Shown one piece after another: positions 1 to 61,236 of a DNA stretch of 64,000 nucleotides. Both the position numbers and the translations under genes were made by a program. The notes beneath the pieces are model-generated. The model worked only from the letters and a program-made list of their open reading frames with translations, had not been told where the DNA came from and made no database searches. This DNA comes from an uncultured Christensenellaceae bacterium (GTDB lineage Bacteria > Bacillota > Clostridia > Christensenellales > UBA3700): contig CALWHB010000001.1 of NCBI GenBank assembly GCA_944380275.1, positions 33,369 through 97,368 of the forward strand, read 5' to 3'. Positions within the stretch are counted from its first letter, which is position 1. Every line of letters starts with the position of its first letter.

Positions 1-3000
1 CACGCAATTACGGCAAAGTCGACGCACAATCGGTATCCGATGCAGTCAGGGAATTTTGCAGATATACTCCTTTAACTTACGGCGAAATATGCGCTCTTAA
101 AGGTGCTTTTGAAGTCGCGTTACTCAAAAACGTCGAATTTGTTTGTCGTAAAATCAGAGCAGTCGAAAAGGCGAAAAAACGCGCTGAAGAAGACAGAGAA
201 CCCGACGTCCGCATGAGCAAACGAGAAGGTTATCTTCATTTTTATATTGCTGCAGGGAAAAAAATTCCAGATAAATTTATTGGCAGAAATACCGAAATCA
301 ACATCGAAAACGTCGATTTTGCATTTGCCGGTGCTATGTCGGATTATGCGCATATTATCGGCAATGCCGTGTCGTCGCTTAAATCCTTAGGCGATTTCAT
401 GACGGAACAATTCATAGTTTCGCTTTCTCCGATTAACGGTTACATTGAAAGGGATAAGTCTTATTGCGAAAGCGACTGTGCGTCAAAAAAACAGTATCTT
501 GCCGCAATTTCGGAACTTGCGCGATATTTCAACGTCGGAGAATATGCGGTTGCAAAAGGGGCGTTCGACCTGGCTGCAAGGTTTGACGTCCATTTCGGAG
601 AAATAATATTCAATTACCGTTATGCATTGCGTTCTCACCTGAAAGGCAAGTACGTCAATAAACTCAAAAGAACTCAGTACCGACTGGATAAAACGCTGTA
701 TTACTGTTCTGTTTTTCTGCTGCAGGCGGTTTTTGCTCTTTTGTCGGGCATTTTTCTTCCTCCGGTATGGCTCAGAATAACGGTAAGCTCGCTTGTTTTT
801 GTCGCAGCCTATCCGTCGTGTGCATATATCGCAGAAAGAGTTATAGCGTTTTTCCTTCCAAAGCGTCCCGTACCGAGGCTGAATTATGCAGAAATTCCCC
901 CGGAAGGTGCAACTGCTGTTGTCGTTTCTCATTATCTGACAAACCCTCAGAGTGCAAAAAAAGCGATGGACGACATGCTTGCGTTGAGAGCCGTAAACGA
1001 CGGTAAAAACGTGTATTTCTTTTTGCTTTGCGACCTTGCAGAAAGCGACAGCGAAGAAAACGAAAAAGACAATGAAATAATAAAAGAATTGTCAAAAGGA
1101 GAAAAAGCCGAAAATTTTGCGGTACTTGTCAGAAAGCGCGTCGCAATAGGGAAGAAATACGGTGCCTACGAGAGAAAACGCGGCGCAGTTATGGATTTCA
1201 ACGAGTGTATGATAAGCGGAGATACCTCAAAATTCAGATACGTTTCCCGTCCCTTCGATTTCAAAGCAAAGTATGTTATGTTGCTTGACGCAGACAGCAG
1301 GATAGGGGCAGGACAGGTACGTACCGCAGTCAATACGATAATGCATCCGCTCAATGCAAAATACAATCTTATGACATTTTCTTCGGTATATTCTCTGTCT
1401 TCTCTCGTTACTCCTTACTCTGAAAAGTTTTATGAAAGCGCGGGGGCGCAGACCTATTGCGATTATGACGATTTTTATTTTAATCTGACGTCAAAGGCGA
1501 TATTCTGCGGTAAAGGTATTTATGACTTAGAGGCTTTTCATGAAAAGACTTCTGCGGTTATTCCGGACGGAAAGGTGCTGAGCCACGACATAATCGAAGG
1601 TGCGATTATGAATACCGGAAGTCTTAATCTTGCAGTTGCCGAAGACGCTCCGGATACTTTTGTAAGCGACGTTTCAAGGCGCAACAGATGGATGAGAGGC
1701 GATTTGCTGTTGTTGCCTTTCGTCGGCAAAAAATACTGTTCTGACGGGATATATTCATATCTGATATTGAAAAACGCTTTTTCATATTTATCTCCCTGCG
1801 CCGCGCTCGCGCTGTGGATTATCGCGCTTTCTCAGGGATATGCTTTGACGTTCGCCGGAGTGTTTTTTGCGTGTTTTTCGGCACCGCTCGCATCGCTTGC
1901 AATCTCTGTATCTCAGAGCGTTAGCGTTAAATCTTCTGAAAACTTCAGGAGAATTTTAAAAACGGTTTCAACTGCAGTTTTAGACGTACTGCTGTTGCCG
2001 TTTTACGCGACAGTAAATCTGGCTGTGGCTGCGCGGACTTTTTTCGACTATATATTCAATTCCGGCGCGATGCTTAAATGGAAACCATTTGCGACACTTC
2101 AGGGAATAAGCGGATACGGCAGACATGCGGCGACGGTTGCGCCTTCATGCATGATAACGGCTATACTCGCAGCAGTATTTTACGGTTCTCCTGCGGTTGC
2201 GGTTTACGCGCTGCTATTTATAGCGACGGTAAACTTTTTGGCATTTGCATGTAAAAAAAGAAAAGACAAGCCTGTGTCGCAGCAGGACAAAGCGGTTCTG
2301 ACCGGATACGCACGCGACACATATGCATATTTCAACGAGCTTTCAGGCGACAGTTTGCCTTGCGACAATATTCAGATATATCCGCCAAAAGGGAAGAGTG
2401 CGACGACGTCCCCAACGAATATAGGTTATGCTTTGCTTGCGGAAATCTGTGCGGCAGAACTCGGAATCAAAACCGTTGCGGCAGCGAGGCAGAAAATACT
2501 CGCATTGATACAATGTTGCGAGAAACTGGAAAAGTGGAAAGGACATCTCTATAACTGGTACGACGTTTGCACTTTAAAACCGGTAAACCCGTACTTCGTA
2601 TCTTCTGTAGACAGCGGAAACTATATTGCCGCACTTATATCATGCAAAGGTTTTTTCAAAGCAAGCGGTTTTGACGACGACGCAGAACGCTGTGAAAAAC
2701 TTATAGACGAAACGGATTTTTCAGCATTGATTGACAAAGATAAAAACCAGCTGTTTATAGGATATAACGTGGGAGCAAAACGGTATGAAGGACATTACGA
2801 TTTGCTTGCAAGCGAGTCAAGACTGACAGCGTATATTGCTTGCTGCATCGGCAAAGACAGCACTCTGTGGAACGGTTTTTCACGCGTACAGGTCAACTCT
2901 AAAGGTAACGTTCTTGCGTCCTGGTCAGGCACGGCTTTTGAATATCTGATGCCGCAACTGTTCTTGCCCGACGTGAGAAATTCTCTTATCACTTCAAGCG

Positions 3001-6000
3001 TAAAAAGGGCGGTAAATACTTTTGTTTCTCGTAAATGCAACGGACTCTGGGGCATAAGCGAAAGCGGATATTACGCATTTGATGCTGACGCTAAATATCA
3101 GTACAGAGCGCACGGTCTGGGAGAGCTTGCGCTGAGAAACGAAAGCGACAGATGCGTGATAACTCCGTACGCAAGCGCACTCGCACTGAGATATTGCCCT
3201 GAAAAGGCGTTGAGAAACCTGTCTTCTCTTCGCAACAGGGGTGTATACGGCGATTACGGTTTTTACGAGGCTATGGATTTTTCGGCAGGAAGGAATACCG
3301 TTTCTTCAGCTATGACACATCATCAGGGTATGATACTTTGCTCAATTGTAAACGCTTTGAAAGACGATGCGATAATCAGATATTTCATGTCTGACAATGC
3401 GATGGCAGGAGGAAAACTTATGCTTGAAGAAAAACAACTGCCTTGCATAACGAAACGGACAGTAAAACGCGATTTTATCTATTTTGGCAGCATAAACAAT
3501 TATGCTTATACTGTAAATCTTGGTGGATTTCCAAGAATATGCATGCTGCGAGGCAGAGAATATTCAGTGGTTATCGATGATTACGGTTGCGGATATTCGC
3601 AATGGAGAGATAAGGATATAAACGTGTTTTCTACGGATTATTATAAAAACAGCGGAGGTTTCGGATATTTTATCTGCGACGGACAAACTTTTTCGCCTAC
3701 TTTTGCACCTCTGAAAACGGACGGAGGCTCCTGCAAAGTAATATTCGGGAGCAATTTTGCAAAATTTGAAAACTTCAGACACAATTGCAATCTGAAGATT
3801 TTCACTCCGACTGTAGTAAGCGGAGAAGTGAGAGAGTATACGGTAAAGAACGATTCCGATAAACTGAAAAATTACCAATTTGTATTTGCAGAGCGTACCG
3901 CATTGAGCGGACGTGAAGAATATGCGGCGCATCCTGCGTTCTGTGACCTTTTTGTCAACGCACGTTTTGACCGTTCAAAAAATACAGTATATTTGAAAAG
4001 AAAACCGCGAGAAAGCACGGGAGGATTTATTCTTGCCGCCACTATGCTTGCAGGAACTGACGTTTATGCAGAGTGCAACAGACAGAATCTCTTAGGAAGA
4101 AACCGTGACGAGAGCAATCCCGCACTCGACTTCGGCGGAGAAAATCCGTCGCTCGGCGACGTTATCACTCCGTGCCTCGGACTTAAATGCGCGTTTACTC
4201 TCGCACCCGGACAAAGTAAAAAAATTGCTGTGATTATTCAATGTTCAGACGACGAAAGCACTCTCGAAAACAGAGTAAATCAAGTTATATCGACCGATTT
4301 TCTCAGCTATGCGTCAAAACCTGTTGAAGACGGGGACGGCTATGTGTTGTCTAAATATCTGCCTGACGAAGAAAGTGCGCGATTTGCAGGGAAACTGGCG
4401 GCAAAACTTTTGTATGAACCTTATCCTAAATCTGCGCTGCTCGCAAGATTGCAGAATCCACAGACATTGTCTTTCAATGAAAAGACTTTGATACTCGATT
4501 ACGACTCTGTTCCGGGACTTGCAAAAAAAGCCGTAAAGAGTGCGATTGCGTGCAGACTGTGCGGAATAGATTTGAGGCTTGTCGTATTATATGACGAGTC
4601 TGACGGATACAACGGTGAAACTGCCGCAGAAATCTGCAACAGAGTGGGGGTCAGCGACCTGAAAACTCTGCCTTTCGTTACGTTTATAGACAAAAACGCA
4701 TACAAACCGCAAGAGATTAAAAACCTCGTTTTACAGTCGTTTTTCAAATTTTCAGAACGTGAAGAAGACAACGTGCGGCGCAGTGTAATCGCCGTAAGAC
4801 GACGCAACGGACAGGACAAATTTATTCCCTGCAAGCTGCCTGCAGTCTATCGGAGCGGTAACGGCGGATTTGACGAAAACGGCGATTATTACGTATTTTC
4901 TAAACCTCAACTGCCGTATTCTAACGTCGTTTCAACCCTTTCGGGCGGTTTTGTCGCTACCGAAAACGGCGGAGGATTCTGCTATTTCCTCAACAGCCAG
5001 AGTAATAAGTTGTCGGGATGGAGCAATGACCCTGTTGCGGACGCGCCCTATGAAAGACTGCTCGTGTCCGAAGGCGAATACGTCGTCAGAGTCAATAAAC
5101 TTAATCATGGCGGATACGTCAGACACTCCAAGGGAAGTACGACTTACGTATGCCGTACCGAAAAAGCAGGTTATAAAACAGAAAAATATCTGGCAATGGG
5201 AGGAAAAATACAGGTAATCGCTTTGACTGTGTCAAATCACGGAGATAAGACTTTAAGTGCAGAAGTAAGTTATGTTATGTCGCCGTGTCAGGATACAAAG
5301 TCTGACAGAAGTTTTATATTCTGCGAAAAGGAAGGAAAAGACGCATTGAAAGCCGTCAACGTAAAGACAGGGAAAAGTTTTTATCTTCTCGCAAAAGACA
5401 ATGCAGAAATCCTGACGGATTGCGAACAGGTGCTTTCAAGGGGAATAAACGGCTTTAACCCCAAGAGAAGTCAGAGCAGATTCAACAATCCGATTTGCGG
5501 GGCAAGTATTGAAGTCAGAATAGAAAAATCGTCGGAAAAGACGTTGATATTTGCAATTTGCGACAGTGAAGAAAGTCTTGCTTTTGCAAGAATAAACGAT
5601 ATTTCCCTGCAAAGAGAGCAATCAAAGAACAATCTGTCCGATACCGGCAGCGTAAAACTGATAAGCTCTGACAGGTCGCTCGACTTGCTTTTTGCAAACC
5701 TGCCTTACCAGGTGCGTGCAAGCAGAATATGCGGCAAATGCGGTTTCTACCAGGCAGGAGGCGCGATAGGTTTCAGGGACCAGTTGCAGGACTGTCTTGC
5801 GCTGTTGTGGTCAGACCCTGCCGCCGTAAGAGAGCATATTCTGAGATGTGCCGAAAGACAATATATCGAAGGCGACGTAATGCACTGGTGGCATGCACCG
5901 GCTTTCGGAGTCAGAACGAGGATTTCTGACGACAGGCTCTTTTTGCCATACGTCGCCTGCGAGTATGTCGCACATACCGGCGACGACTCGATACTCGGAG

Positions 6001-7094
6001 AAAAATGCGCTTATCTCATCGGTGAACCTCTCGACGATTTGCAGGAGGCAAGACTTGAACACGGCAAGTATGCGGGAGTGGAAGAAAGCCTTCTACTGCA
6101 CATGCAAAGGGCAATAGACAGCGCGCTGGTCAAAGGAGAACACGGACTTCTTCTGATAGGAGGAGGCGACTGGAACGACGCACTCAACGAGATTGGTCTG
6201 AGAGGCAGGGGGGAAAGCGTCTGGCTTACTCAGTTTGCCATTGACGTTATCGAAAAGTTCTGCGCGTATATTGACAAGGAGAGTGCAAAAAGATATTACA
6301 AAATCGCCGCGGACCTCAGATGTGCCGTTCAGAACGCGTTTTTTGACGACAGATGGGCAAGAGCATTTACTGATAAAGGTGAGTGGCTGGGAACTAAAAA
6401 ATCTAAAGGTTGCAAAACCGACCTTATATCTCAATGCTGGGCGCAGATTGTGTTTGCAGGAACGCAGGAACAGAGAAAAAGCGCGATGTGTGCTGCAAAA
6501 TCGCTTATTGACGAAAATGCCGGTGCAGTCAGATTGTTTTCTCCGCCTTTTGACGGCAAAGTGAGATACGGATATATCTCGTCTTATCCGCAAGGGGTAC
6601 GGGAGAACGGCGGACAATATACGCACGCCGCCGTGTGGTATCTGCTCGCGTGCTGTAAAGCAGGCGACAAAGAAGAGGCAAACAGGGTGCTGAAAATGCT
6701 CAATCCGGTCGAAAGATGCAGAGATAAAGATAAAAATGCGGCTTACAAAGCAGAGCCTTACGTGCTTGCAGGCGACGTTTATACAAACGAAGACAACGTC
6801 GGCAGAGCAGGCTGGACGTGGTATACCGGGTCTGCGGCATGGCTTTACAAAGTCATACTTGAAGAAATGCTCGGTATCAAAAAAAGAGGCGACAGCCTGG
6901 TATTTTCTCCGCCGCTACTCGATAAAGCCCAAGATGCGAGAGCGGAATACGTATACGAAGGCACCACCTACGTTATCGGATTTGAAAACTCAGGTATGCG
7001 CGGAATCAGACAAAACGGAGTAAATTATACAAACTGTTCGGTATTGCCGCTCAAAAAAAACAGAGGCAGGATTGAAATAACCGTACTGTTCTGA
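1..7094 (+). CDS. Cyclic beta-1,2-glucan synthase-like giant protein (membrane GT domain + central glucan-processing region + C-terminal GH94-like phosphorylase); 5' end outside the window
   Basis: The reading frame starting at nt 3 has no stop until the TGA at 7092-7094, so the ATG at 213 in the ORF track is probably internal. The protein has TM-rich segments flanking GT2/GT84-like motifs (LLDADSRIG; RRNRWMRGD, a QxxRW-type motif). The C-terminal region carries GGGDWNDALN (nt ~6160-6190), typical of GH94. The overall architecture matches Cgs/NdvB/ChvB. Confidence 0.8.
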   Translation, partial: RNYGKVDAQSVSDAVREFCRYTPLTYGEICALKGAFEVALLKNVEFVCRKIRAVEKAKKRAEEDREPDVRMSKREGYLHFYIAAGKKIPDKFIGRNTEINIENVDFAFAGAMSDYAHIIGNAVSSLKSLGDFMTEQFIVSLSPINGYIERDKSYCESDCASKKQYLAAISELARYFNVGEYAVAKGAFDLAARFDVHFGEIIFNYRYALRSHLKGKYVNKLKRTQYRLDKTLYYCSVFLLQAVFALLSGIFLPPVWLRITVSSLVFVAAYPSCAYIAERVIAFFLPKRPVPRLNYAEIPPEGATAVVVSHYLTNPQSAKKAMDDMLALRAVNDGKNVYFFLLCDLAESDSEENEKDNEIIKELSKGEKAENFAVLVRKRVAIGKKYGAYERKRGAVMDFNECMISGDTSKFRYVSRPFDFKAKYVMLLDADSRIGAGQVRTAVNTIMHPLNAKYNLMTFSSVYSLSSLVTPYSEKFYESAGAQTYCDYDDFYFNLTSKAIFCGKGIYDLEAFHEKTSAVIPDGKVLSHDIIEGAIMNTGSLNLAVAEDAPDTFVSDVSRRNRWMRGDLLLLPFVGKKYCSDGIYSYLILKNAFSYLSPCAALALWIIALSQGYALTFAGVFFACFSAPLASLAISVSQSVSVKSSENFRRILKTVSTAVLDVLLLPFYATVNLAVAARTFFDYIFNSGAMLKWKPFATLQGISGYGRHAATVAPSCMITAILAAVFYGSPAVAVYALLFIATVNFLAFACKKRKDKPVSQQDKAVLTGYARDTYAYFNELSGDSLPCDNIQIYPPKGKSATTSPTNIGYALLAEICAAELGIKTVAAARQKILALIQCCEKLEKWKGHLYNWYDVCTLKPVNPYFVSSVDSGNYIAALISCKGFFKASGFDDDAERCEKLIDETDFSALIDKDKNQLFIGYNVGAKRYEGHYDLLASESRLTAYIACCIGKDSTLWNGFSRVQVNSKGNVLASWSGTAFEYLMPQLFLPDVRNSLITSSVKRAVNTFVSRKCNGLWGISESGYYAFDADAKYQYRAHGLGELALRNESDRCVITPYASALALRYCPEKALRNLSSLRNRGVYGDYGFYEAMDFSAGRNTVSSAMTHHQGMILCSIVNALKDDAIIRYFMSDNAMAGGKLMLEEKQLPCITKRTVKRDFIYFGSINNYAYTVNLGGFPRICMLRGREYSVVIDDYGCGYSQWRDKDINVFSTDYYKNSGGFGYFICDGQTFSPTFAPLKTDGGSCKVIFGSNFAKFENFRHNCNLKIFTPTVVSGEVREYTVKNDSDKLKNYQFVFAERTALSGREEYAAHPAFCDLFVNARFDRSKNTVYLKRKPRESTGGFILAATMLAGTDVYAECNRQNLLGRNRDESNPALDFGGENPSLGDVITPCLGLKCAFTLAPGQSKKIAVIIQCSDDESTLENRVNQVISTDFLSYASKPVEDGDGYVLSKYLPDEESARFAGKLAAKLLYEPYPKSALLARLQNPQTLSFNEKTLILDYDSVPGLAKKAVKSAIACRLCGIDLRLVVLYDESDGYNGETAAEICNRVGVSDLKTLPFVTFIDKNAYKPQEIKNLVLQSFFKFSEREEDNVRRSVIAVRRRNGQDKFIPCKLPAVYRSGNGGFDENGDYYVFSKPQLPYSNVVSTLSGGFVATENGGGFCYFLNSQSNKLSGWSNDPVADAPYERLLVSEGEYVVRVNKLNHGGYVRHSKGSTTYVCRTEKAGYKTEKYLAMGGKIQVIALTVSNHGDKTLSAEVSYVMSPCQDTKSDRSFIFCEKEGKDALKAVNVKTGKSFYLLAKDNAEILTDCEQVLSRGINGFNPKRSQSRFNNPICGASIEVRIEKSSEKTLIFAICDSEESLAFARINDISLQREQSKNNLSDTGSVKLISSDRSLDLLFANLPYQVRASRICGKCGFYQAGGAIGFRDQLQDCLALLWSDPAAVREHILRCAERQYIEGDVMHWWHAPAFGVRTRISDDRLFLPYVACEYVAHTGDDSILGEKCAYLIGEPLDDLQEARLEHGKYAGVEESLLLHMQRAIDSALVKGEHGLLLIGGGDWNDALNEIGLRGRGESVWLTQFAIDVIEKFCAYIDKESAKRYYKIAADLRCAVQNAFFDDRWARAFTDKGEWLGTKKSKGCKTDLISQCWAQIVFAGTQEQRKSAMCAAKSLIDENAGAVRLFSPPFDGKVRYGYISSYPQGVRENGGQYTHAAVWYLLACCKAGDKEEANRVLKMLNPVERCRDKDKNAAYKAEPYVLAGDVYTNEDNVGRAGWTWYTGSAAWLYKVILEEMLGIKKRGDSLVFSPPLLDKAQDARAEYVYEGTTYVIGFENSGMRGIRQNGVNYTNCSVLPLKKNRGRIEITVLF

Positions 7095-18176: not shown

Positions 18177-19276
18177 CGCAGATTCTGCTTTGCGTTTCCG
18201 CAGGCGAAGTCTTCAAATGGATAGGATATATCGTTATTGCGATGATTTGTTTTATGTTCATGATTGTCGTTCATGAACTCGGACATTACACCGCAGGCAA
18301 ACTGCTCGGATTTAAAATAAACGAGTTCGCAATCGGTTTCGGACCCGCGATATTCAAGAAGGTTACAAATAAAAATACAGGTGAAACATTTTCGCTGAGA
18401 TGTATTCCTGCAGGCGGATTCTGTGCTTTTGAAGGTGAAGACGCAGAGGCAGAATCTCCTGAAAGTTTCAATTCTCATCCCGTATGGAAGAGAATAATCG
18501 TGCTTGCGTCCGGGGTATTTTTCAACTTTTTAAGCGCGATTATCATACTGAACATCTTTTTTATGACATACGGCGAGGCTGTGCCTGAGATTGCGGATAC
18601 CTATCAGCTCGTGCAGGAATCTGACGAACAACTGTTTCAGCCGGGAGATAAAATAATCGAAGTAAACGGGAAAAAGGTATACAGTCTGCTTGAGTCCGGA
18701 AAGCTGGGAGAGCTGATTTCCGGCAGCGATACCAACGAATTTACCGTACTCAGAAACGGCGAGGAAGTAACTTTTACCGCTACAAAAACAGAGTATTATT
18801 ATACCTACCTGACTGAAGACGGCTCTATGGCAACGGAGATAAAAACGGGGCTTGGGATTACCTACGGGTTCGGTCAATATAAACTGGGGTATTTCTCTGC
18901 GGTAGCGCGTTCTTTCAATTTCTGCGGCGACGTCGTAGAACTGATTTTCAAATCGATAGGGCAACTGTTTACGGGAGCTGCAAAAGTGAAAGATACGATG
19001 GGAGGCACGATTACCGCAGTGTCCGCTCTCGTTCAGCTGGGGCAATCCGGATTTGCCGCAGTTGCTTACGGAGTTGCGGTTTTGTCGATTTCGATAGCGT
19101 TTATGAACATTTTGCCTCTTCCTGCACTTGACGGCTCTCGTATAGTTTTTGCTATAATAGAGGCGATAAGAAAAAAACCTCTCAACCGCAAGGTGGAGGG
19201 TATGATACACGCGGTGGGACTCGTACTGCTGATTGGACTTGCCGTCACGTTCGACCTGCTGCATTTCTTTGGGTGA
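18173..19276 (+). CDS. rseP: RIP zinc metalloprotease RseP/YluC (site-2 protease)
   Basis: HELGHY zinc motif in TM1, a central PDZ-like segment, and the C-terminal NILPLPALDGSRIV motif. The start overlaps the dxr stop (ATGA). Confidence 0.9.
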   Translation: MTQILLCVSAGEVFKWIGYIVIAMICFMFMIVVHELGHYTAGKLLGFKINEFAIGFGPAIFKKVTNKNTGETFSLRCIPAGGFCAFEGEDAEAESPESFNSHPVWKRIIVLASGVFFNFLSAIIILNIFFMTYGEAVPEIADTYQLVQESDEQLFQPGDKIIEVNGKKVYSLLESGKLGELISGSDTNEFTVLRNGEEVTFTATKTEYYYTYLTEDGSMATEIKTGLGITYGFGQYKLGYFSAVARSFNFCGDVVELIFKSIGQLFTGAAKVKDTMGGTITAVSALVQLGQSGFAAVAYGVAVLSISIAFMNILPLPALDGSRIVFAIIEAIRKKPLNRKVEGMIHAVGLVLLIGLAVTFDLLHFFG

Positions 19277-19280
19277 AAAT

Positions 19281-20312
19281 ATGACGAGAAAAATTAAAAT
19301 AGGAAACATTACGATAGGCGGAGGAGAGAGAATCGCCGTCCAATCGATGACAAATACTAAAACTTCGGATATAGACGGTACTCTTGCTCAACTCGCCGCA
19401 CTTGAAAAAGCAGGTTGCGACATTGCACGCTGTTCGGTACCGGACGAGGCAAGCGCAAAAGCTTTAAAGAGCATAGTAAAAGGCACTAAAATGCCTATCG
19501 TCGCCGACATACATTTCGATTACAGACTGGCGGTTGCTGCGGCAGACGCCGGTGCGGCAAAAATCAGGATAAATCCGGGCAATATCGGTGACGAAAGTAA
19601 AGTGGAATATCTTGCAAAATATCTGAAGGAAAGAAAAATTCCTGTCAGAATAGGCGTAAACGGTGGCTCGCTTGACAAAAAATATCAGGGCATGCCGCTG
19701 GCTGAGGCGATGTGCGAAAGTGCGCTCGAACATGTAGGTTTGCTTGAAAAACACGGTTTTTACGATATAGTAATTTCTGTAAAATCCTCTGATGTCGCAA
19801 ATACGATAAAGGCATACAGATTGCTATCTCAAAAATGCGATTATCCTCTGCATGTCGGCGTAACAGAGGCGGGAATTTACGAAAAAGGACTGATAAAATC
19901 GGCAATAGGTATAGGCTCTCTGCTTTGCGACGGAATAGGCGATACCGTCAGGGTTTCTCTTACCGACGACCCCGTAAAAGAAGTTTATGCCGCAAAAGAG
20001 ATTCTCAAGGCGGTCGGACGCTTTGACGGTGCTTATGCAGAAGTCGTGTCGTGTCCCACTTGCGCAAGAACGTGTATAGACGTGCAGGGCATAGCGACAA
20101 AAGTCGAAGAATACGCGCGCACTCTGAATAAGAGCGTAAAGATAGCGGTAATGGGCTGCGTTGTCAACGGAATAGGTGAATCAAAAGGATGCGACGTAGG
20201 AGTCGCAGGAGGAAAGGACAAGTCCGTCATATTCAAAGACGGCAAAATAATCGCTACAGTTCCCAACGAAATTATACTCGAAGAGCTGAAAAGAGCAATC
20301 GATAAAATATAA
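19281..20312 (+). CDS. ispG: 4-hydroxy-3-methylbut-2-enyl diphosphate synthase (flavodoxin)
   Basis: IKIGNITIGGGERIAVQSMTNT, RINPGNIG and the Fe-S cysteines in VSCPTCART...MGCVVNG are present. The ATG at 19281 follows the rseP stop; the ORF-track start at 19233 lies inside rseP. Confidence 0.95.
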   Translation: MTRKIKIGNITIGGGERIAVQSMTNTKTSDIDGTLAQLAALEKAGCDIARCSVPDEASAKALKSIVKGTKMPIVADIHFDYRLAVAAADAGAAKIRINPGNIGDESKVEYLAKYLKERKIPVRIGVNGGSLDKKYQGMPLAEAMCESALEHVGLLEKHGFYDIVISVKSSDVANTIKAYRLLSQKCDYPLHVGVTEAGIYEKGLIKSAIGIGSLLCDGIGDTVRVSLTDDPVKEVYAAKEILKAVGRFDGAYAEVVSCPTCARTCIDVQGIATKVEEYARTLNKSVKIAVMGCVVNGIGESKGCDVGVAGGKDKSVIFKDGKIIATVPNEIILEELKRAIDKI

Positions 20313-20472
20313 TTACCATTTATATTTTTATGCGATTATTATAAAAATCGACTTAATTTAGAATATAAATCATATATTTGAGCCGTATTTTGACTATATA
20401 TTTGTTAATAACAAACAAAATAGCGACTCTGCAACAACAGCAGAAAAACTCGTGAGGAAACTTTGCGTATAT

Positions 20473-22059
20473 ATGAATAACGATGACAAAGTGAAGAATA
20501 CAGAAGAAAAAATCGATTTTATAAAACTTCTCAATATACGTTTTGACAACGCATACGACTTTCTTCGCGTTCGCTCAGTTGACCTCGATATCGAAGAAAA
20601 GACAGTTTCCGTTCAAATAGGTATGCCGTATTCAGGAGAAAATACTCTCAGCGAGGAAGACAAGAAAAAAATACTTTCTTTTGCCGTTGAAATATTGCCT
20701 TCAGAATATTCCGTTTCGATAAGCTACAGAAAATTCGGCGTCGATTATGATATCGTTTATAAACTCATAAGAGAATACGTTTCAAAGTATCACAGGGCTT
20801 ATTCTGTATTGATTTCATCTGACAACGTAAAGATAGACTGCAACGATAAAACGGTCACCGTAACCATCACTGTCGTAAAATCCGTCGAAGGTCTTTTCAG
20901 AAAGTGCAATCTGCCGGAAGGACTCAAAGAATATCTGGATTCTTCGTATGACAGAGAAAACATTATCAAAATAGAGAATACGGACACTTTTGTCATATCT
21001 GAGTCCGCTAAAGAGGAAGTTCCGGTCGTAATCGACGATTGTTACATAGAGATAAGCGCGCTGCACAAGCTTTGCGGCGGTGAAATAACTTCAAAAGCAC
21101 GCTATATAAGGGCATGCAAAACTCCTCAGAGTGCGATTTGCGTAACCGGAAAGGTTGAAAGTATCGTTGCCAAAAATTCAAAATCTTCGGGCAATCTGTA
21201 TTACAATTTTACGATAAACGACACTACCGGCATGATGAGATGCTGCTATTTCACGAGAAAAGCCGCAAAAGGTCCGCTGGATATTCTCGAAGAAGGAGCA
21301 GAAATAGCCGTCGTCGGCGATTTGCAGAACGACAATTATAAAGGCGGGCTTTCTCTTATAGCAAAAAGCGTTAGTCTGTGCAAGATTGATTATTCTTCAA
21401 TACTTACCGAAGACGATTTGAAACGGAAAAAAACTTATGTGCCTGTTAAGGCAAAGCCTCTCGACATTACTACGCAACAGAATATCTTTGACATTGCATA
21501 TGAAAAACCGCCTTATCTTACGGATAACGTTTTTGTTGTTTTTGACCTTGAAACCACAGGACTTCTCGACAACGGAGTTCCTTGTAAAATTATCGAAATA
21601 GGTGCTGTCAAAATTGTAAACGGCGTGTGTACGGAATATTTTTCGACACTTGTCGACCCGCAGATGCATATACCGGAAGGCGCGTCTGCGACAAATCATA
21701 TTTACGACGATATGGTAGAGGATGCACCGTATATCGAAGACGTTCTGCCTGACTTCCTTGCGTGGGTGGGTAATGCTACGTTGGTTGCTCACAACGGAAA
21801 TAAATTCGATTTTATAGTTCTCAGAAACGAGGCTGCGGAACAGGGTATGACGGTGCCTAACAAGACAAAAGATACAATAGTTATAGCTCAGGCATACAGA
21901 GATAAGACCGGTAAGAGGGGGCAACTCAACCTCAGGGTTCTTTGCAAAGAGTTCGATATTGAACTGGTTGAGGCTCACCGCGCATACTATGACGCTTACG
22001 CGACGGCGCAGTTGTTTATTCGGCTGTGCGATTTTGTCGACGTTGAAAGAATAGGGTGA
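20473..22059 (+). CDS. PolC-like N-terminal/OB-fold/3'-5' exonuclease protein lacking PHP and polymerase domains
   Basis: The OB-fold segment ICVTGKVESIV...FTINDTTGMMRCCYF...IAVVGDLQNDNYKGGLSLIAKSV resembles the PolC OB domain. DEDDh exonuclease motifs are present: VVFDLETTGL, LVAHNGNKFDFIVL and LCKEFDIELVEAHRAYYDAYATAQLF (compare B. subtilis PolC LCKKFDIELTQHHRAIYDAEATAYLL, quoted from memory). An alternative GTG start lies at 20452. Confidence 0.75.
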   Translation: MNNDDKVKNTEEKIDFIKLLNIRFDNAYDFLRVRSVDLDIEEKTVSVQIGMPYSGENTLSEEDKKKILSFAVEILPSEYSVSISYRKFGVDYDIVYKLIREYVSKYHRAYSVLISSDNVKIDCNDKTVTVTITVVKSVEGLFRKCNLPEGLKEYLDSSYDRENIIKIENTDTFVISESAKEEVPVVIDDCYIEISALHKLCGGEITSKARYIRACKTPQSAICVTGKVESIVAKNSKSSGNLYYNFTINDTTGMMRCCYFTRKAAKGPLDILEEGAEIAVVGDLQNDNYKGGLSLIAKSVSLCKIDYSSILTEDDLKRKKTYVPVKAKPLDITTQQNIFDIAYEKPPYLTDNVFVVFDLETTGLLDNGVPCKIIEIGAVKIVNGVCTEYFSTLVDPQMHIPEGASATNHIYDDMVEDAPYIEDVLPDFLAWVGNATLVAHNGNKFDFIVLRNEAAEQGMTVPNKTKDTIVIAQAYRDKTGKRGQLNLRVLCKEFDIELVEAHRAYYDAYATAQLFIRLCDFVDVERIG

Positions 22060-22247
22060 ATTTAAGTATTCGACAAAATATTGCCGAGTCTGACTTAGAG
22101 TAAAACAAGTGTTTTGTCTGACCGTTGTTCCTCTTTATCGTCGCGATTTTTATATATGCATTTCTGTTCTCGTGTAATAATAAGTGCGATAAAGGGCGCA
22201 GATATTTCACATTTGTGCATTTTTTGCAATTAATTCTGAAAAAAGTG

Positions 22248-22276
22248 TTGATTTTGCAAAATATATGTGATAATAT
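22248..22276 (+). promoter_or_regulatory. Sigma-A type promoter of the rimP-nusA-infB operon
   Basis: TTGATT (22248-22253), a 17-nt spacer, then TAATAT (22271-22276) with TGa. The leader contains a hairpin, AAGCGGCTGA..TCAGTCGCTT. Confidence 0.45.
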
Positions 22277-22343
22277 ATATGTAAGATAGTATTTACTTAC
22301 TAAGCGGCTGACATCAGTCGCTTTAATTATGTAAGGAGAGGTT

Positions 22344-34708: not shown

Positions 34709-35091
34709 TGGACGTTTTCAAGCTGGTCGCAATCGGTATAACAGGCGCAATTGCCTGTCTTCTGCTCAAGAAGACTGACGGGCAGTACGCCGCTCTCGTT
34801 GCCGTCGCAACGGGTATTGTTATCCTGATTATATGCATAAAATCGCTTGCGTCAGTTCTCGTTTCTTTGCAGGAAATCGTCGACAAAACGGGCATAGACA
34901 ACGCTTTATTTTCTTCATTAATGAAGATAGTGGGCGTAGGGTATCTTACAGAATTTGCCTGCGGACTTTGCGACGATATGGATTGCGGAGGTATATCGAA
35001 AAAAATTGCGCTTGGAGGAAAGATAGCGATATTTCTTATGTCGCTGCCTATTGTCAACGCGCTTATTGATACCGTTGCGGGGCTTATATGA
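34708..35091 (+). CDS. spoIIIAD: Stage III sporulation protein AD
   Basis: 127-aa four-TM protein (FKLVAIGITGAIACLLLKK...) paralogous in pattern to SpoIIIAC. Fourth position in the operon. Confidence 0.85.
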   Translation: MDVFKLVAIGITGAIACLLLKKTDGQYAALVAVATGIVILIICIKSLASVLVSLQEIVDKTGIDNALFSSLMKIVGVGYLTEFACGLCDDMDCGGISKKIALGGKIAIFLMSLPIVNALIDTVAGLI

Positions 35092-36275
35092 AAAAATGCG
35101 CTAAAAAAATTGCAATAATAATCCTTTTATCGGTTCTGATTGCCTCTCTGTGTGCAGAACTGACTTTTGCCGATGAATCCGCACAGGAAAAACTCGAAGA
35201 CGAAATAGAGGACAAGCTCGGAGAACTGGATTTTTCTGAATTGCAGAACTGGCTGAGTGAATACGGCGACAACGGTACCGGAATAGCCGACAACGGAATA
35301 ATGCAGGCAATAAAGGACGTAATAGCGGGGAAGTTCGATTGCGACGCCGCCGGTTTCTTTTCTGCACTCGGCTCTATAGCGTCAGGAGCGGTAAAAGACG
35401 CACTCCCTGCTCTGATAGCTATATTTGCAGTTGCACTGCTTTACTCTATCGTCGGAGGGCTTTCAGGTGGCTTTTTGAGAAAAAGTACGACAGAACTGAT
35501 ATATTTTGCGTGTTATGTGACGATGATTTCAATAGTTGCTGCAAAAGTCGCATCACTTCTTATGACTGCAACGTCTACCGTAAAATCAATGCAGTCGCTT
35601 ATGAACGCTACTTTTCCGGTGTTGCTTACCTTGTTGACAGCATTGGGTTCTGTTACTTCCGCAACGGTATACAGACCTATGACTGCTATCCTTGCAAGCG
35701 GCGTTACAGCGGTCGTAACATCGGTGGTACTGCCACTTTTTATAGCCGCTACCGTTGTGGGAATAGTAGGAAATCTGAGCAAAAACATAAAATTGAATAA
35801 GCTTACGTCGTTTTTTACAAGTTGCGCAAATTTTATTCTGGGCAGCATTTTCGGAATATTTGCCACCTTTTTATCCGTTCAGGGACTGACCGGAGCGATT
35901 GCGGATACCGTTTCTGTAAAAACGGCGAAATTTGCTTTGCAAAGTTACGTTCCGCTGCTCGGCGGGTATTTATCAGACGGATTTGACCTTGTGCTTGCAG
36001 GAATTGTGCTTATAAAAAATTCTGCAGGACTCGTGATTACGCTTTTAATACTTGCGGCAATTGCCGTTCCTGTAATAGAAATAGCGGTATTTTCTCTTGG
36101 ACTTAAGCTCGTCAGCGGACTTATAGAGCCGTTTTGCGATAACAGATTCTGCACAATGCTGTCAGGCGTATCCAAAAACCTCGGAGTGCTTATCGCGATT
36201 GTCCTCGGTGTAGGTTTTATGTTTATAGTTACTGTAATGCTGATTGTGGCGACTTGCAATGCGGGGGTAGTATGA
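35088..36275 (+). CDS. spoIIIAE: Stage III sporulation protein AE
   Basis: 395 aa with a signal peptide plus a polytopic permease-like body. Fifth position in the operon. Confidence 0.88.
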   Translation: MKKCAKKIAIIILLSVLIASLCAELTFADESAQEKLEDEIEDKLGELDFSELQNWLSEYGDNGTGIADNGIMQAIKDVIAGKFDCDAAGFFSALGSIASGAVKDALPALIAIFAVALLYSIVGGLSGGFLRKSTTELIYFACYVTMISIVAAKVASLLMTATSTVKSMQSLMNATFPVLLTLLTALGSVTSATVYRPMTAILASGVTAVVTSVVLPLFIAATVVGIVGNLSKNIKLNKLTSFFTSCANFILGSIFGIFATFLSVQGLTGAIADTVSVKTAKFALQSYVPLLGGYLSDGFDLVLAGIVLIKNSAGLVITLLILAAIAVPVIEIAVFSLGLKLVSGLIEPFCDNRFCTMLSGVSKNLGVLIAIVLGVGFMFIVTVMLIVATCNAGVV

Positions 36276-48392: not shown

Positions 48393-48476
48393 AAAATCAA
48401 TCTGACTTTTTTGTAATGCTTTCATACATAATTTATTCTTCTGTGATTCACACTAATGTCCGTAAGGAGTTTTGCA

Positions 48477-49625
48477 ATGAAAAGATTATTCGGCATAATA
48501 ATATTGCTTGCAGTATGCGTTGCCGCAGTCGGGTATTTCGGATTCTGCTGCGGCGACGACCCGGTTTACAGCGATTACGAAGTAGCCGCCACAACATCGC
48601 CTCTTTCAGTAAACGTGCTTGAAGAATCCGAAGGCGAAGTATCTACAAAACTTTTCGGGATTATAGAAATAAAATCCGCTCAGGCTCAAAAAAGCAAAAA
48701 CAACGAGGTTTTGCTGGGCGGTTTCCCTTTGGGACTCGACCTTAACCTCAAAGGACTTATGATTACGGGAAAGGCGGGAGTCGTTACTGCCGACGGTGCG
48801 GTTTCACCTTGTGAAAACACAGATATAAGATACGGCGACGTACTTCTGGCTATCGACGGCAAATCTGTAGGCAGCGACAAAGCTATTTCTATGATTCTGA
48901 ACGAAAATGCAGGAGAAAGCGTCGAACTTTACGTTATGAGAGGCGATGAAACAAAAATATATACAGTATATCCTGCAAAAGACGTATTGAGCGGAAATTA
49001 CAGGATAGGACTGACTCTTCAGGATAAAATTTCCGGTATAGGCACAGCAACTTTTATCAATCCTCAAACAAAAAAATATGCTTGTTTAGGACACGCTATA
49101 CTTTCTCAGGACGGCAGTCTGATAAGAATAGACGGAGGCAAGATATTCAATGCATATATATCCGGCAGCGTTAAAGGAAAAATAGGCAAAGCAGGAGAGC
49201 TGAACGGAACTTTCAGCTCAAAATCGCTTTCGATAGGTACTATAGAAGAAAACTGCGCTTTTGGCAATTACGGCGTATTTACAGGAAAAACAGATTCTAT
49301 GCAAAAAATAGAAATAGGTTCAAGGACTTCAGTGCGTCCCGGAAAAGCACAGATTTACAGCACCGTCATGGGCAGTGAGCCGAAATACTACGACATCGAA
49401 ATCATTAAAGTAAACGAGCAATCGTCGCCGTCTGACAAATCAATGGTAATAAGAATAACGGACGAAAAACTGATAAGCCTTACCGGAGGAATCGTCCAGG
49501 GTATGAGCGGCAGTCCAATTATTCAGAACGGCAGACTTGTGGGCGCGGTAACTCACGTTTTTACGGCAGACCCGACAAAAGGCTACGGAATATATGCAGA
49601 CTGGATGTATGAAAAAACTCTGTAA
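48477..49625 (+). CDS. spoIVB: SpoIVB peptidase (S55 signalling serine protease)
   Basis: N-terminal TM, a PDZ segment (GDVLLAIDGKSV) and the S55 catalytic region (LGHAI...; GIVQGMSGSPIIQNGRLVGAVTH). The ATG at 48477 lies 7 nt after AAGGAG; the ORF-track start is 48456. Confidence 0.9.
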   Translation: MKRLFGIIILLAVCVAAVGYFGFCCGDDPVYSDYEVAATTSPLSVNVLEESEGEVSTKLFGIIEIKSAQAQKSKNNEVLLGGFPLGLDLNLKGLMITGKAGVVTADGAVSPCENTDIRYGDVLLAIDGKSVGSDKAISMILNENAGESVELYVMRGDETKIYTVYPAKDVLSGNYRIGLTLQDKISGIGTATFINPQTKKYACLGHAILSQDGSLIRIDGGKIFNAYISGSVKGKIGKAGELNGTFSSKSLSIGTIEENCAFGNYGVFTGKTDSMQKIEIGSRTSVRPGKAQIYSTVMGSEPKYYDIEIIKVNEQSSPSDKSMVIRITDEKLISLTGGIVQGMSGSPIIQNGRLVGAVTHVFTADPTKGYGIYADWMYEKTL

Positions 49626-51662: not shown

Positions 51663-52148
51663 ATGGAAGAAGACGGCAAAAAAATTTCGACGGCAGAAGA
51701 TATCATAGACGCATACTCGGATATGGTTTTCAGAATTGCCGTTCAATATACGGGCAACAGGCAAGAGGCAGAGGACATAACGCAGGATGCCTTTCTCGCC
51801 ATGCTCAAAAAAATGCCGTTCAACAGCGCGGAACATGCCAAAAGATGGCTTATTCGCGTAACTATAAACAAGTGCAAAGACTATTTCAAATCTGCAAGAA
51901 GGAAAAATCTTCCTCTTGACGAAAATCTGAGCGCATCTTATGTCGGCGAAAACGAAAGGCTTGAAGAGCTTGAAAAGCTTGAACCTCTTGACAGAAGTAT
52001 CATATACCTTTTCTATTACGAAGGATACAGCGCAAAGGAAATAGCAAAAATGACGGGAAAAACAAGAAATGCCGTCAATATAAGACTGAGCAGAGCAAGA
52101 AATACTCTGCGAGAATTGTTGGAGGAGGGCGACAGATATGACGGATAA
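51663..52148 (+). CDS. ECF-type RNA polymerase sigma factor (sigma-70 regions 2 and 4)
   Basis: Region 2 is YSDMVFRIAVQYTGNRQEAEDITQDAFL. Region 4 is LEPLDRSIIYLFYYEGYSAKEIAKMTGKTRNAVNIRLSRAR. The ATG at 51663 lies 6 nt after AGGAAG; an alternative TTG lies at 51624. Confidence 0.88.
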   Translation: MEEDGKKISTAEDIIDAYSDMVFRIAVQYTGNRQEAEDITQDAFLAMLKKMPFNSAEHAKRWLIRVTINKCKDYFKSARRKNLPLDENLSASYVGENERLEELEKLEPLDRSIIYLFYYEGYSAKEIAKMTGKTRNAVNIRLSRARNTLRELLEEGDRYDG

Positions 52149-54369
52149 CAAATATGCGAGAGCAATGTCGGAAATAACGCTTTCTCCAAACAGAAAAAAT
52201 TTAATCAAACAAGCCGTAAAACGCAACCTTCAATATAAAAAAGCAGATTGCAACGCTCCGGTAATCAGAAGTAAATCCAAAGCTGCAACGTTTATCAAGA
52301 TAGCTACGCCGACAGTTGCCGCCGCGCTTATCGCTATAGTGCTTACAGTCATACTTATGCCTGCAACGATTCCGACTGTCGACGTAACCAATCCCGTTTC
52401 CGTACAGGAATACGAATATATTTCAAACGTCGTTGAATACGCACAGTATCTTCCCAACGCAGAGTTGCTTTCAGGCTCGGAAAAATCCGCAACCGGACTT
52501 TCAGGCAATTTAAGCAACCCAAACATTACAAACGACGCAAGATACGACGAGGCTTACCAACTTCAGGACGGACAGCTTGAATTTGACATAGATGATTACA
52601 GGACTTTCAACGACTCGCTTGCAATCGTAAGCTCTACAGGCGTATCCGGCGATTTGACCGTTTACGACATCAAAAAGGAAATAATTTTTGCCGTCGACGT
52701 GATTCCCGGATATGACCAGTGGTTCACTATGCCTTACAATGCAGACTATCTCAGCGAAAGCGACGCAAGATTGTATACAAATAACAGCTACAAGTTGTCT
52801 TACGACAAACAAAACGGCGTAATTAAAATGGTAAGGCTTTCTCAGAAACACAGAGGAGAAACTTATAACCCGTCAACATCTGTTTTTTACGGCAACGCTT
52901 ACACAAGGCAGCTGCTTGAAGTAAGTTATTATATCAACGGAGAAGGAAAAGAAGTCGTTGACTGCAAAGTTACTGACTTCCTTTGCGTGCAGGAAGGAGA
53001 GTATTATCCTCTTTTTGCTCAAAGACTCATAAACGTCAGGGACACTTCAGCGACCAAATATTCTGTCGCGTATATGCTCGATTATGACCTTGTAAAGGAA
53101 TTTCCGGGCAACAACACACTGTCTGCATACGACCTCTCTCAAAAATTCGATTACGGCATAAACGTAATCGCCGTGCAGATGGATTATTCTTCTGACAAAG
53201 ACATTGAAATATTAAAAACACAATACACGACTCAGGATGCTCATTGCGTTCAGCCTACAATGACGGCAATCGATTATTACAAAAAAACTGCGTCCGACGT
53301 GACTTACTTCACATCATGCTGGGATAACAGCGCAATAACTTATTTGTATAAAATACATTTAAACGATTTTGTAAACGTATCACAGCAATCCGACGGAAAA
53401 TATGCGGCTGATTCAGAAGGTATGAAAAAATTCTTCGGCTATCTTTTCCCTCTGAGGAGCAGACTCGTATGTCCCGTATGCGAAGATAAAGGATATACCG
53501 ACGACGGAATTTTCAAAGGATGCTTTCACGGTAAACACTTCGACAATATAGTAAATTCCAAAAGTCAGCTGCTCAGCAACAATGAGGCTTATCTTTCGGA
53601 CGCAGAGGTATTGTATGACGATATAGCTCAAAAATATTCGTCTTTAAACTCTGTTCTTTCTCTTGACGCACGACCGGCTTTCGACGGCGATGGAAATTAT
53701 TGCTTTGAAAATTCAATAAACGATTTTATCAGGCAGTCCAGCACAGAATACTACGGCAAATACGTCTTGTCTGCCGGTTATGCCGCAATGGACGAAGAAG
53801 TCAATAAGAATTCAACGATTATCGGAGAAGAATATCTTGCAGAATTAATGAAAGGGAAATATACTTTTACTTACGACATAAAAGATTACAGTACGGTAAA
53901 TAACGGAAATATCGATTATGTCGTGGAGCAAAAAGTAAATTTAAAAGAAATCAATCCGCAAAGCGAATATTACGTTGCGTTGATAGTAGAAAAAACGGAC
54001 GGTTCGGGGGAATATGCGGTGATAGACAAAATTCAGATTACTGATACCGACAAAACCTACAAACTGAAAGGCAGCGTTTCAATACCTCTGATGCTCGACA
54101 TGATTCTTAACGTTGCACCCGTATTCAAAGAAGGCGACACGTTCAGACTTGCAATCGCCGTACTTGAACAAAACGCCGACGACATAAATGTGATTTCGCA
54201 TACAAAAGCCGTTGAAAACGACAAAACCTCTGAAGAAATCCTCTACAAAGAAGGTGTTGTCAGGCTGGACGGAATAAATTATTCTTATCTCGTGGACAAA
54301 GGGGACAATAACAATATCGTCGTCGTAATGCTTGAAAATCACGTGGATTATATTTATCCTGTTCAATAA
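52138..54369 (+). CDS. Putative anti-sigma factor: short cytoplasmic N-terminus, one TM, ~660-aa extracytoplasmic domain of unknown fold
   Basis: It overlaps the sigma gene by 11 nt. The N-terminal ~60 aa are followed by the TM FIKIATPTVAAALIAIVLTVILM. I recognise no motif in the remainder except a Cys/His cluster, CPVCEDKGYTDDGIFKGCFHGKH. Confidence 0.6.
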   Translation: MTDNKYARAMSEITLSPNRKNLIKQAVKRNLQYKKADCNAPVIRSKSKAATFIKIATPTVAAALIAIVLTVILMPATIPTVDVTNPVSVQEYEYISNVVEYAQYLPNAELLSGSEKSATGLSGNLSNPNITNDARYDEAYQLQDGQLEFDIDDYRTFNDSLAIVSSTGVSGDLTVYDIKKEIIFAVDVIPGYDQWFTMPYNADYLSESDARLYTNNSYKLSYDKQNGVIKMVRLSQKHRGETYNPSTSVFYGNAYTRQLLEVSYYINGEGKEVVDCKVTDFLCVQEGEYYPLFAQRLINVRDTSATKYSVAYMLDYDLVKEFPGNNTLSAYDLSQKFDYGINVIAVQMDYSSDKDIEILKTQYTTQDAHCVQPTMTAIDYYKKTASDVTYFTSCWDNSAITYLYKIHLNDFVNVSQQSDGKYAADSEGMKKFFGYLFPLRSRLVCPVCEDKGYTDDGIFKGCFHGKHFDNIVNSKSQLLSNNEAYLSDAEVLYDDIAQKYSSLNSVLSLDARPAFDGDGNYCFENSINDFIRQSSTEYYGKYVLSAGYAAMDEEVNKNSTIIGEEYLAELMKGKYTFTYDIKDYSTVNNGNIDYVVEQKVNLKEINPQSEYYVALIVEKTDGSGEYAVIDKIQITDTDKTYKLKGSVSIPLMLDMILNVAPVFKEGDTFRLAIAVLEQNADDINVISHTKAVENDKTSEEILYKEGVVRLDGINYSYLVDKGDNNNIVVVMLENHVDYIYPVQ

Positions 54370-56832: not shown

Positions 56833-56870
56833 CGGGTGCCGGCTTTTAATCGATTGTATATTTATAATTA

Positions 56871-56901
56871 AAAACTCCGAATCTTGCGAAACGGAGTTTT
56901 T
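56871..56901. terminator. Bidirectional terminator between the convergent TVP38-like and PadR-fusion genes
   Basis: Stem AAAACTCCG/CGGAGTTTT with a 12-nt loop. The A-run and T-run are built into the arms. Confidence 0.7.
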
Positions 56902-56905
56902 ATAT

Positions 56906-58663: not shown

Positions 58664-58694
58664 TTCGTATCTCCCTGAATTCTCCTTATAAAAT

Positions 58695-61153: not shown

Positions 61154-61180
61154 TAATTTTGATATTTATTGAAAATTGTG

Positions 61181-61209: not shown

Positions 61210-61236
61210 TTAATCAGAATATTTCTGAGGTGCGCC

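Follow-up and report, generated by a model that had tools for sequence, protein, structure and literature searches.

A free-standing protein with PolC-type OB and DEDDh exonuclease domains occupies the polC locus of uncultured gut Clostridia

The Firmicutes are generally characterised by their replicase PolC, seen as a hallmark of the group, against which a new class of antibiotics (ibezapolstat) is directed (as described in parts of PMC11963600 and PMC12592400). Here we examine a 64 kb stretch of DNA from an uncultured Christensenellaceae bacterium (hereafter the window, meaning the whole stretch that was analysed), in which the place of polC is taken by a gene for a 528-aa protein that consists of an N-terminal domain (NTD), an OB fold, a linker and a DEDDh exonuclease (Exo). 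The same NTD-OB-Exo part stands alone at the polC locus across a large group of uncultured gut Clostridia, and the polymerase is absent from the locus.

Three replication systems are described in passages of two surveys of complete genomes, where PolCs that lack the exonuclease are noted as well (PMC3919608, PMC12926913). In the relevant part of the former, Exo-less PolCs are, with one exception, confined to Clostridia and Negativicutes, some Firmicutes are DnaE1-only, and a clostridial DnaE1 is described whose PHP site is intact and whose putative epsilon-binding surface is conserved (PMC3919608). Among the DnaE1-only Firmicutes that appear in part of the other survey are Thermodesulfobium, Thermaerobacter, Thermacetogenium, Desulfoscipio, Desulfofarcimen and Ammonifex (PMC12926913). 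A further arrangement, described in a passage of PMC3919608, is the DnaE1 of Bacteroidetes, which has an N-terminal DnaQ-like Exo attached through a linker of ~60 residues. No mention of an NTD-OB-Exo protein occurs in the passages of PMC3919608 and PMC12926913 that were searched, or in targeted literature searches, and nothing useful was found on PolC in taxa with names beginning Christensenell-; the family, which is real and widespread, is apparently undescribed.

Set beside these systems, the 528-aa protein resembles PolC in its slot after ispG, in the order of NTD, OB fold and DEDDh exonuclease, and in OB and Exo domains whose homology to those of PolC is clear from their sequence profiles. 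It differs in length (~528 vs ~1,450 aa), in having no PHP domain, Pol3 core, fingers or HhH, in an Exo that is not inserted into a PHP fold, and in a clamp-like motif that is internal, between OB and Exo, rather than at the extreme C-terminus. The Exo-less PolCs (NTD, OB, PHP, Pol3 and HhH, e.g. in Acidaminococcus) are likewise domain-reduced PolC derivatives from the same bacterial classes, but they keep the polymerase and lose the Exo, such that the 528-aa protein is the complementary reduction; their existence indicates that polymerase and DnaQ-type Exo are separable. The Bacteroidetes DnaE1 is comparable in that its Exo is joined by a linker and is not inserted into PHP, although there the Exo is fused to the polymerase, whereas here it is free-standing and accompanied by a PolC-type OB. 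E. coli epsilon (DnaQ) bears a clamp-binding peptide beside its nuclease domain. It shares with the 528-aa protein a stand-alone DEDDh proofreading fold (Foldseek template modelling (TM) score, target-normalised, ~0.85, at 28% identity), yet it has neither OB fold nor NTD, its clamp peptide and polymerase-binding tail are both C-terminal, and the sequence of the 528-aa protein is closer to PolC Exo than to proteobacterial DnaQ. Last, the N-terminal nuclease of Firmicutes DinG and the PRK06807 and PRK07740 types share the DEDDh fold, and the 528-aa protein scores 84-112 bits with their NCBIfam models, but none of these models reaches its family cutoff, and neither the NTD+OB module nor the polC slot is seen in any of these proteins.

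A first-pass annotation of the window, made from the sequence without database searches, had read the C-terminal third of the protein as a PolC-like exonuclease and its middle as the PolC OB fold, and both assignments are borne out. Each of the exonuclease strings that it quoted (VFVVFDLETTGL, LVAHNGNKFDF and LCKEFDIELVEAHRAYYDAYATA) is present, and these supply the five catalytic residues within ExoI (FDLETTG; D358, E360), ExoII (HNGNKFD; D446) and ExoIII (HRAYYD; H502, D507). Among 447 distinct full-length members of the family, D358, E360, D446 and H502 are kept in all 447 and D507 in 446. Pfam places RNase_T at residues 355-515 (E 1e-28), and PF00929 (RNase_T; 101.5 bits vs a cutoff of 24) and TIGR00573 (94.3 vs 71.5 bits) are both above cutoff, as is proper to a DnaQ-type DEDDh fold; target-normalised TM scores to DnaQ structures in Foldseek are 0.81-0.86. 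By sequence, the domain is closest to the Exo of PolC: identity is 37-44% to 18 full-length PolCs and up to 47% at other polC loci, and among PDB sequences the Exo of T. maritima PolC (2p1j, E 2e-19) ranks ahead of E. faecium PolC, which in turn ranks ahead of E. coli epsilon. DNA exonuclease activity and proofreading are putative functions of the domain. For the OB fold, Pfam gives a weak match at residues 224-301, tRNA_anti-codon is matched in 49 of 53 family members, and alignment of the OB region alone to a PolC profile with hhalign (probability 97.3%, E 2.6e-11) falls on PolC columns 285-385, the position of the OB in PolC. The whole protein aligns to that profile colinearly (E 7.9e-67). 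The AlphaFold2 (AF2) model, with a mean predicted local distance difference test score (pLDDT) of 87.8, aligns in Foldseek over 382 columns spanning OB and Exo to the E. faecium PolC structure 9qpc_A (E 5.7e-17), and every other Foldseek match is to the Exo only. We regard the OB fold, on these profile and model comparisons, as clearly homologous to that of PolC.

By the features that define PolC, on the other hand, the protein is not one. The top NCBIfam model is indeed PolC (PRK00448), but at 142.6 bits vs a cutoff of 873, and the second PolC model, TIGR01405, also remains below its cutoff (123 bits vs an equivalog cutoff of 1043). The Pol3 core (PF07733/PF17657) has no match in the 528-aa protein, whereas three control PolCs match with E of 1e-54 to 1e-57, and no PHP signature (PF02811) was found by Pfam in the protein or in 53 family members. 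In the hhalign comparison the N-terminal PHP segment of PolC (~90 residues, with the HxH motif) is gapped out, the family having a linker of ~45 residues; similarity to PolC resumes ~15 residues upstream of ExoI, and nothing comes after the Exo in the protein, as opposed to a PHP domain split by an inserted Exo. When 18 full-length PolCs were compared by tblastn with the whole window, only the Exo part was matched (21481-22056), in agreement with the first-pass annotation that PHP and polymerase sequence is missing: there is no PHP or Pol3 sequence, intact or decayed, in the 64 kb, and no PolC remnant in the gap before rimP. Neither polC nor dnaE lies within the window, in which the only open reading frame (ORF) of >1000 aa encodes a GH94 enzyme.

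The gene lies between ispG (end 20312) and rimP (start 22344), in the order pyrH-frr-uppS-cdsA-dxr-rseP-ispG-[ORF]-rimP-nusA-ylxR-ylxQ-infB-rbfA-nrnA-truB-ribF, and it is, as had been noticed at first pass, the lone ORF of ~530 aa in that interval. The frame is open from a GTG at 20452 to 22059 (535 aa), and the ATG at 20473 is the likely start codon, giving a protein of 528 aa, the length of close homologues. The promoter-like sites at 20286-20342 are no more than matches to a consensus. The gap of 284 nt before rimP had been described as carrying only the rimP promoter; a promoter-like site can indeed be read there by eye (TTGATT 22248-22253, TGTGATAAT 22266-22274), but a terminator scan adds a terminator-like hairpin at 22196-22218. 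The flanks of the gene, this gap included, have no Rfam match. The absence of proS, which had also been remarked upon, is real but is normal for Clostridia, as the PolC-bearing Clostridia analysed here also show dxr-rseP-ispG-polC.

This position is shared across the family. Synteny was assessed by tblastn over 84 loci and by a scan of species-representative genomes with at least 80 loci listed. In at least about 50 species genomes, a member of 500-530 aa directly follows ispG or rseP, and in most of these rimP-nusA-infB comes next; ~30 loci that were matched through the Exo alone, in Lachnospiraceae, Dorea, Extibacter, Roseburia and others, mostly carry a full-length polC right after ispG (complete copies encode 1,458-1,642 aa). 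The family gene is the positional counterpart of polC, as the first-pass annotation had proposed from this one locus, and contexts from ENA, NCBI and Logan assemblies agree on the slot. The distance from the family gene to rimP is 110-410 nt, and in ~55 contexts examined there is no polymerase gene adjacent to it. Among the at least 80 loci listed, no whole-genome shotgun prefix occurs twice, which is uninformative on a second polymerase gene. IspG identity does not discriminate between family-bearing and PolC-bearing loci (50-56% in both groups), and the PolC-bearing locus with the top IspG identity (L044) is not especially close; RseP identity does separate them (40-52% vs 28-37%). Several departures from the usual arrangement were also seen. 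In ~10 genomes the family gene comes directly after rseP, with no ispG in between (L008, L009, L015, L017, L022, L023, L033, L038, L049), and in L005 it comes after tilS, so that the slot is conserved relative to rimP or rseP and not strictly to ispG. At L007 (7444-10962), L006 (7489-11476), L010 and L014 the gene follows dxr-rseP-ispG, and rimP-nusA are absent downstream. A 1,172-aa ORF downstream of the gene in L007 was considered as the other half of a split polC; it encodes an InlB-repeat/leucine-rich-repeat surface protein, and a split gene was rejected for that clade. In L006 the reading frame of the counterpart of this ORF is split in two by a frameshift.

The family itself is large, as a survey of the ~530-aa architecture makes plain. 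A first protein search listed 120 clusters at 90% identity (447-563 aa, matched over most of their length), all from metagenome-assembled genomes (MAGs) of Clostridia or Christensenellales, and a second search, seeded with a member of 55% GC, listed a further 120, all from MAGs. When a profile was searched against 1.84 billion cluster representatives, the best 150 were all full-length members with E <= 1e-124 (474-589 aa, plus one partial entry of 447 aa), which puts the family at more than 150 clusters at 50% identity. The architecture is typically 500-540 aa long, with 25-35% identity between subgroups. Homologues occur in hundreds of assemblies; among the matches listed they come from Clostridia-type MAGs, with a few under other taxonomic labels, and across the 240 clusters and the cluster look-up every homologue with a source name comes from a MAG, and no cultured organism is named. 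Names in the first search were 'exonuclease domain-containing protein', '3'-5' exonuclease', 'hypothetical protein' and, once, 'DNA polymerase-3 subunit alpha (Gram-positive type)', the last of which suggests that PolC may be over-called in MAG surveys. In public databases (P0084, P0142, P0045) members go by labels as varied as that polymerase name, '3'-5' exoribonuclease', 'hypothetical protein' and 'DNA polymerase III epsilon subunit family exonuclease', and automated assignments of PolC to MAGs may be false positives due to the family.

Such a protein could in principle be the remnant of a pseudogene, or an artefact of assembly or binning in which a normal polC lost its polymerase part, and all of the sequences do come from metagenome assemblies. 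However, the identical 528-aa protein is found on 7 independent contigs, the same architecture recurs in the 240 clusters listed at 90% identity and in the best 150 at 50%, and both the stop codon and the downstream rimP are conserved. Between the gene of the window and two orthologues of 83-85% identity, the proportion of synonymous differences (pS) is 0.56-0.90, near saturation, while the nonsynonymous proportion (pN) comes to 0.14-0.15 for the NTD, 0.06-0.09 for the OB, 0.07-0.10 for the linker and 0.04-0.09 for the Exo. Purifying selection acts on each of the four. With pN far below pS in every region and catalytic residues kept in 446-447 of 447 members, the earlier argument against a decaying pseudogene stands, and the collapse of a normal polC during assembly, which had been named as a way in which the assignment might fail, does not accord with 7 contigs and hundreds of assemblies. 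We give this explanation practically no credence. Origins in mobile elements were considered as well: viral contigs match almost only the Exo (one partial match reaches back to residue 278), and PADLOC returns generic DEDDh matches only, and neither a phage nor a defence origin was retained.

The linker that replaces the PHP segment is the least confident part of the AF2 model (pLDDT 63-84), and at 20-25 residues before ExoI it contains a conserved motif, Q-x-[NDST]-[LMFI]-[FL]. At that spot, 90 of 137 unique linkers have the pattern Q..[LIMF]F vs 4.4 expected from shuffles, a ~20-fold enrichment, and the rest have xNLFD, xSLLD or QINFLD at the equivalent position. Of 447 members, 82% have the Q, 446 have L, M, F, I or V at position 4, and 98% have F or L at position 5. 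PolC C-termini read QITFF, QLSFF or QIELF, and a clostridial DnaE1 has QMSLL (part of the supplement of PMC3919608); the PolCs aligned here end in QLSLF. The linker peptide, QQNIF in the window, thus resembles a beta-clamp-binding motif and may bind the clamp. Its location in a linker of low pLDDT is as expected for a linear docking peptide, and the gain of a clamp-like motif in a new linker argues for a protein remodelled to act alone at clamp-loaded DNA. The first-pass annotation, which had suggested a stand-alone proofreader or replisome-associated factor, had missed the motif, and that suggestion is strengthened by it.

The NTD is a more difficult case. It is modelled with a pLDDT of 85.5 as b-b-a-b-a followed by b-b-a-a-b, Pfam has no match to residues 1-210, and Foldseek retrieves generic tandem alpha/beta repeats only (OsmY/BON, PrgH ring-building motifs, archaeal NusA KH); the NTD of PolC has itself never been resolved experimentally (according to part of PMC12592400). 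Aligned with hhalign to the PolC NI+NII regions, the NTD gives a colinear global score of 23.3 over 170 columns vs 1.9+-1.4 (maximum 6.9) for shuffled columns, and a local score of 30.1 vs 9.6+-1.7. These controls were 60 column shuffles, which remove the periodicity of secondary structure, such that the excess indicates a similar layout and is no proof of homology. A PolC-NTD hidden Markov model gives a best E of 4.7e-4 among 195 family N-termini (reversed sequences: 0.047), the aligned stretches being PolC 118-184 and residues 110-181 of the family. On these comparisons PolC ancestry of the NTD, possibly as a very diverged NI+NII, is likely but weakly supported.

Given these observations, we consider it on balance probable that the protein is a functional stand-alone 3'-5' DEDDh exonuclease, derived from the N-terminal half of PolC and tethered to the clamp, that has remained at the ancestral polC locus. 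It is reasonable to postulate that the PHP and polymerase parts were lost while the segment between OB and Exo was turned into a flexible linker, whose peptide would keep the protein tethered at primer termini through the sliding clamp. A frayed 3' end or single-stranded template might then be held by the OB fold, and the DEDDh site might act in trans for a C-family polymerase, clearing 3' nucleotides that were misincorporated; this polymerase could be clostridial DnaE1, or else a PolC without Exo whose gene lies elsewhere. Such a role would resemble that of E. coli epsilon, in which a DnaQ fold and a clamp-binding peptide are likewise combined. The protein ends ~10 residues past the ExoIII helix (H504-519 of 528), with no conserved C-terminal tail in the alignment, and with nothing like the tail of epsilon, it would be left to the NTD or OB to contact a polymerase. 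The lack of an extension comparable to the polymerase-binding tail of epsilon is also one of several points that weigh against this explanation. The case for clamp binding comes down to one short motif, of which the Q is missing in ~18% of members and which in some ends in L-L instead of L-F. The neighbouring genes serve isoprenoid synthesis and translation, with no replication genes among them, so that the polC slot is the only functional support from context. As to the NTD, PDB sequences contain no PolC match for it, and the PolC NI and NII families (PF14480, PF11490) are not among the 25 Pfam families listed for 53 members at E<=1, although Lachnospiraceae PolCs used as a control match both (E 6e-14 and 2e-8). 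Of the interpretation offered at first pass, PolC kinship of OB and Exo, the slot and the intactness of the gene hold, while for the N-terminal 185 aa the resemblance to PolC is far weaker than had been suggested.

For the polymerase there are three scenarios: PolC may have been lost, it may have been duplicated and partitioned such that an Exo-less PolC is encoded elsewhere, or a full PolC may persist elsewhere, in which case the protein would be an accessory nuclease. The first and second are favoured by the in-place truncation of a locus that is normally single-copy, and the second and third by PolC being nearly universal in sequenced Clostridia. That the PolC polymerase has been lost in this clade, with DnaE1-only replication in which the front half of PolC serves as a clamp-tethered proofreading subunit, is a scenario we hold to be possible rather than probable; such a proofreader would be a Gram-positive analogue of epsilon, independently arisen by truncation of a replicase, a notion we advance just as tentatively. 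Less likely than the explanation we favour, though far from negligible, is an accessory paralogue, in which a complete PolC (with or without Exo) is encoded elsewhere and the protein is a specialised repair or processing nuclease that has kept the old polC position; the roles that might be proposed for it, such as action on 3' flaps, mismatch excision or clean-up of primer ends, are put forward with the same doubt. PolC is reported to be near-universal in Clostridia with complete genomes, and Christensenella minuta is not among the DnaE1-only Firmicutes in the available part of the supplement of PMC12926913, which is indirect evidence. The Exo-less PolCs of Clostridia and Negativicutes would also fit a duplication followed by complementary domain loss, and the NTD has diverged far beyond the range of PolC NTDs across the Firmicutes, as would be expected after a change of function. 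Against a paralogue, none of the ~55 contexts has a polymerase gene beside the family gene, and moving the full gene elsewhere would be less parsimonious than truncating it where it stood, at a single-copy polC locus. The two explanations overlap, moreover, as a clamp-tethered exonuclease acting in trans could serve an Exo-less PolC.

Two further possibilities depart from DNA replication or from PolC descent altogether. The protein might be a 3'-5' exoribonuclease for RNA or ribosome maturation, recruited beside rimP-nusA-infB-rbfA-truB; some database entries are so named, the RNase_T/DEDDh fold includes RNases, architectures of OB plus nuclease occur among RNases, and the downstream genes do concern ribosome maturation and translation. 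We nonetheless consider it improbable. The nearest relatives of its OB and Exo are PolC domains, which act on DNA, its position is inherited from polC and is no new recruitment, and the gene is set apart from rimP by 110-410 nt and, at the locus of the window, by the terminator-like hairpin. A clamp-binding-like motif would have no role in RNA metabolism, and the clade of L006, L007 and L014 keeps the gene with ispG where rimP-nusA have gone from downstream. Alternatively, the family could be an ancestral free-standing NTD-OB-Exo module from which PolC was assembled by fusion with a PHP-polymerase, and an NTD too diverged for the Pfam models of the PolC N-terminus, in a large family with only 25-35% identity between its subgroups, might be cited in favour. 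Even less credible than an exoribonuclease, this scheme conflicts with the insertion of the PolC Exo inside the PHP fold (described in part of PMC12592400), which a simple fusion does not yield, with a distribution in Clostridia-type MAGs vs that of PolC in Firmicutes, Fusobacteria, Tenericutes and Thermotogae, and with similarity to PolC that extends ~15 residues upstream of ExoI, into the connector from PHP to Exo.

If the functional exonuclease that we favour is borne out, a very abundant gut clade would either be DnaE1-only with a new proofreader acting in trans, or have PolC split or duplicated into polymerase and nuclease genes, and either case would change the picture of the composition of the clostridial replisome. 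It would bear upon questions raised in passages of PMC3919608, namely how PolC and DnaE1 work together and what makes use of the putative epsilon-binding surface of clostridial DnaE1. Were PolC lost, the clade would be without the target of PolC-directed antibiotics such as ibezapolstat. The family also offers a natural experiment on the function of the PolC NTD and OB apart from the polymerase. The coordinates of the gene, its domains and the adjoining intergenic regions are collected in the table.

Table. Position of the gene, of its domains and motif, and of its flanking regions in the window, with the basis of each assignment
Feature	Coordinates	Strand	Basis
Gene for the 528-aa NTD-OB-linker-DEDDh exonuclease protein	20473..22059	+	ORF list, homologue length, AF2 model
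N-terminal domain, residues 14-185, two tandem alpha/beta modules	20512..21027	+	AF2, hhalign, HMM
PolC-type OB fold, residues ~190-308	21040..21396	+	Pfam, hhalign, Foldseek
Linker, residues 309-352, in place of the PolC N-terminal PHP segment	21397..21528	+	hhalign, Pfam
Candidate beta-clamp-binding motif QQNIFD (Q335-D340)	21475..21492	+	translation, motif statistics
DEDDh (DnaQ-like) 3'-5' exonuclease domain, residues 353-520	21529..22032	+	Pfam RNase_T, TIGR00573
AT-rich intergenic region between ispG and the 528-aa gene, promoter-like hexamers	20313..20472	+	sequence
Intergenic gap before rimP, 284 nt	22060..22343	+	terminator scan; promoter-like site read from sequence

Elsewhere in the window, the ispG ORF (19233-20312) has a mechanical TTG start that overlaps rseP; called homologues are 343-347 aa long, so that the true start is probably an internal ATG near 19281 (MTRKIKIG...). 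The GH94 enzyme mentioned above is a 2,293-aa protein (213-7094, + strand) with glucoamylase-like, GH94 supersandwich and GH94 catalytic domains, and in its domain content it resembles a cyclic beta-glucan synthase or phosphorylase. A 743-aa ORF at 52138-54369 (+ strand) has no Pfam match at E<=1e-5, and the one tblastn match to a PolC C-terminus inside it is at chance level (E 0.023). Between 58680 and 60088 lies a stretch of ~1.4 kb without an ORF of >=60 aa (the 58-60 kb bin has a GC of 0.317), directly followed by a tyrosine recombinase at 60089-61153, and the cumulative GC skew peaks at 56-58 kb and then declines, with a change in the sign of the skew there; the 56000-62000 region could be terminus-like or the edge of an integrated element. 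Last, spoIIIAE (35088-36275) and spoIVB (48456-49625) are present in the window together with xseA, dxs and recN, and from the two sporulation genes the source appears to be an endospore-forming member of the Clostridia.

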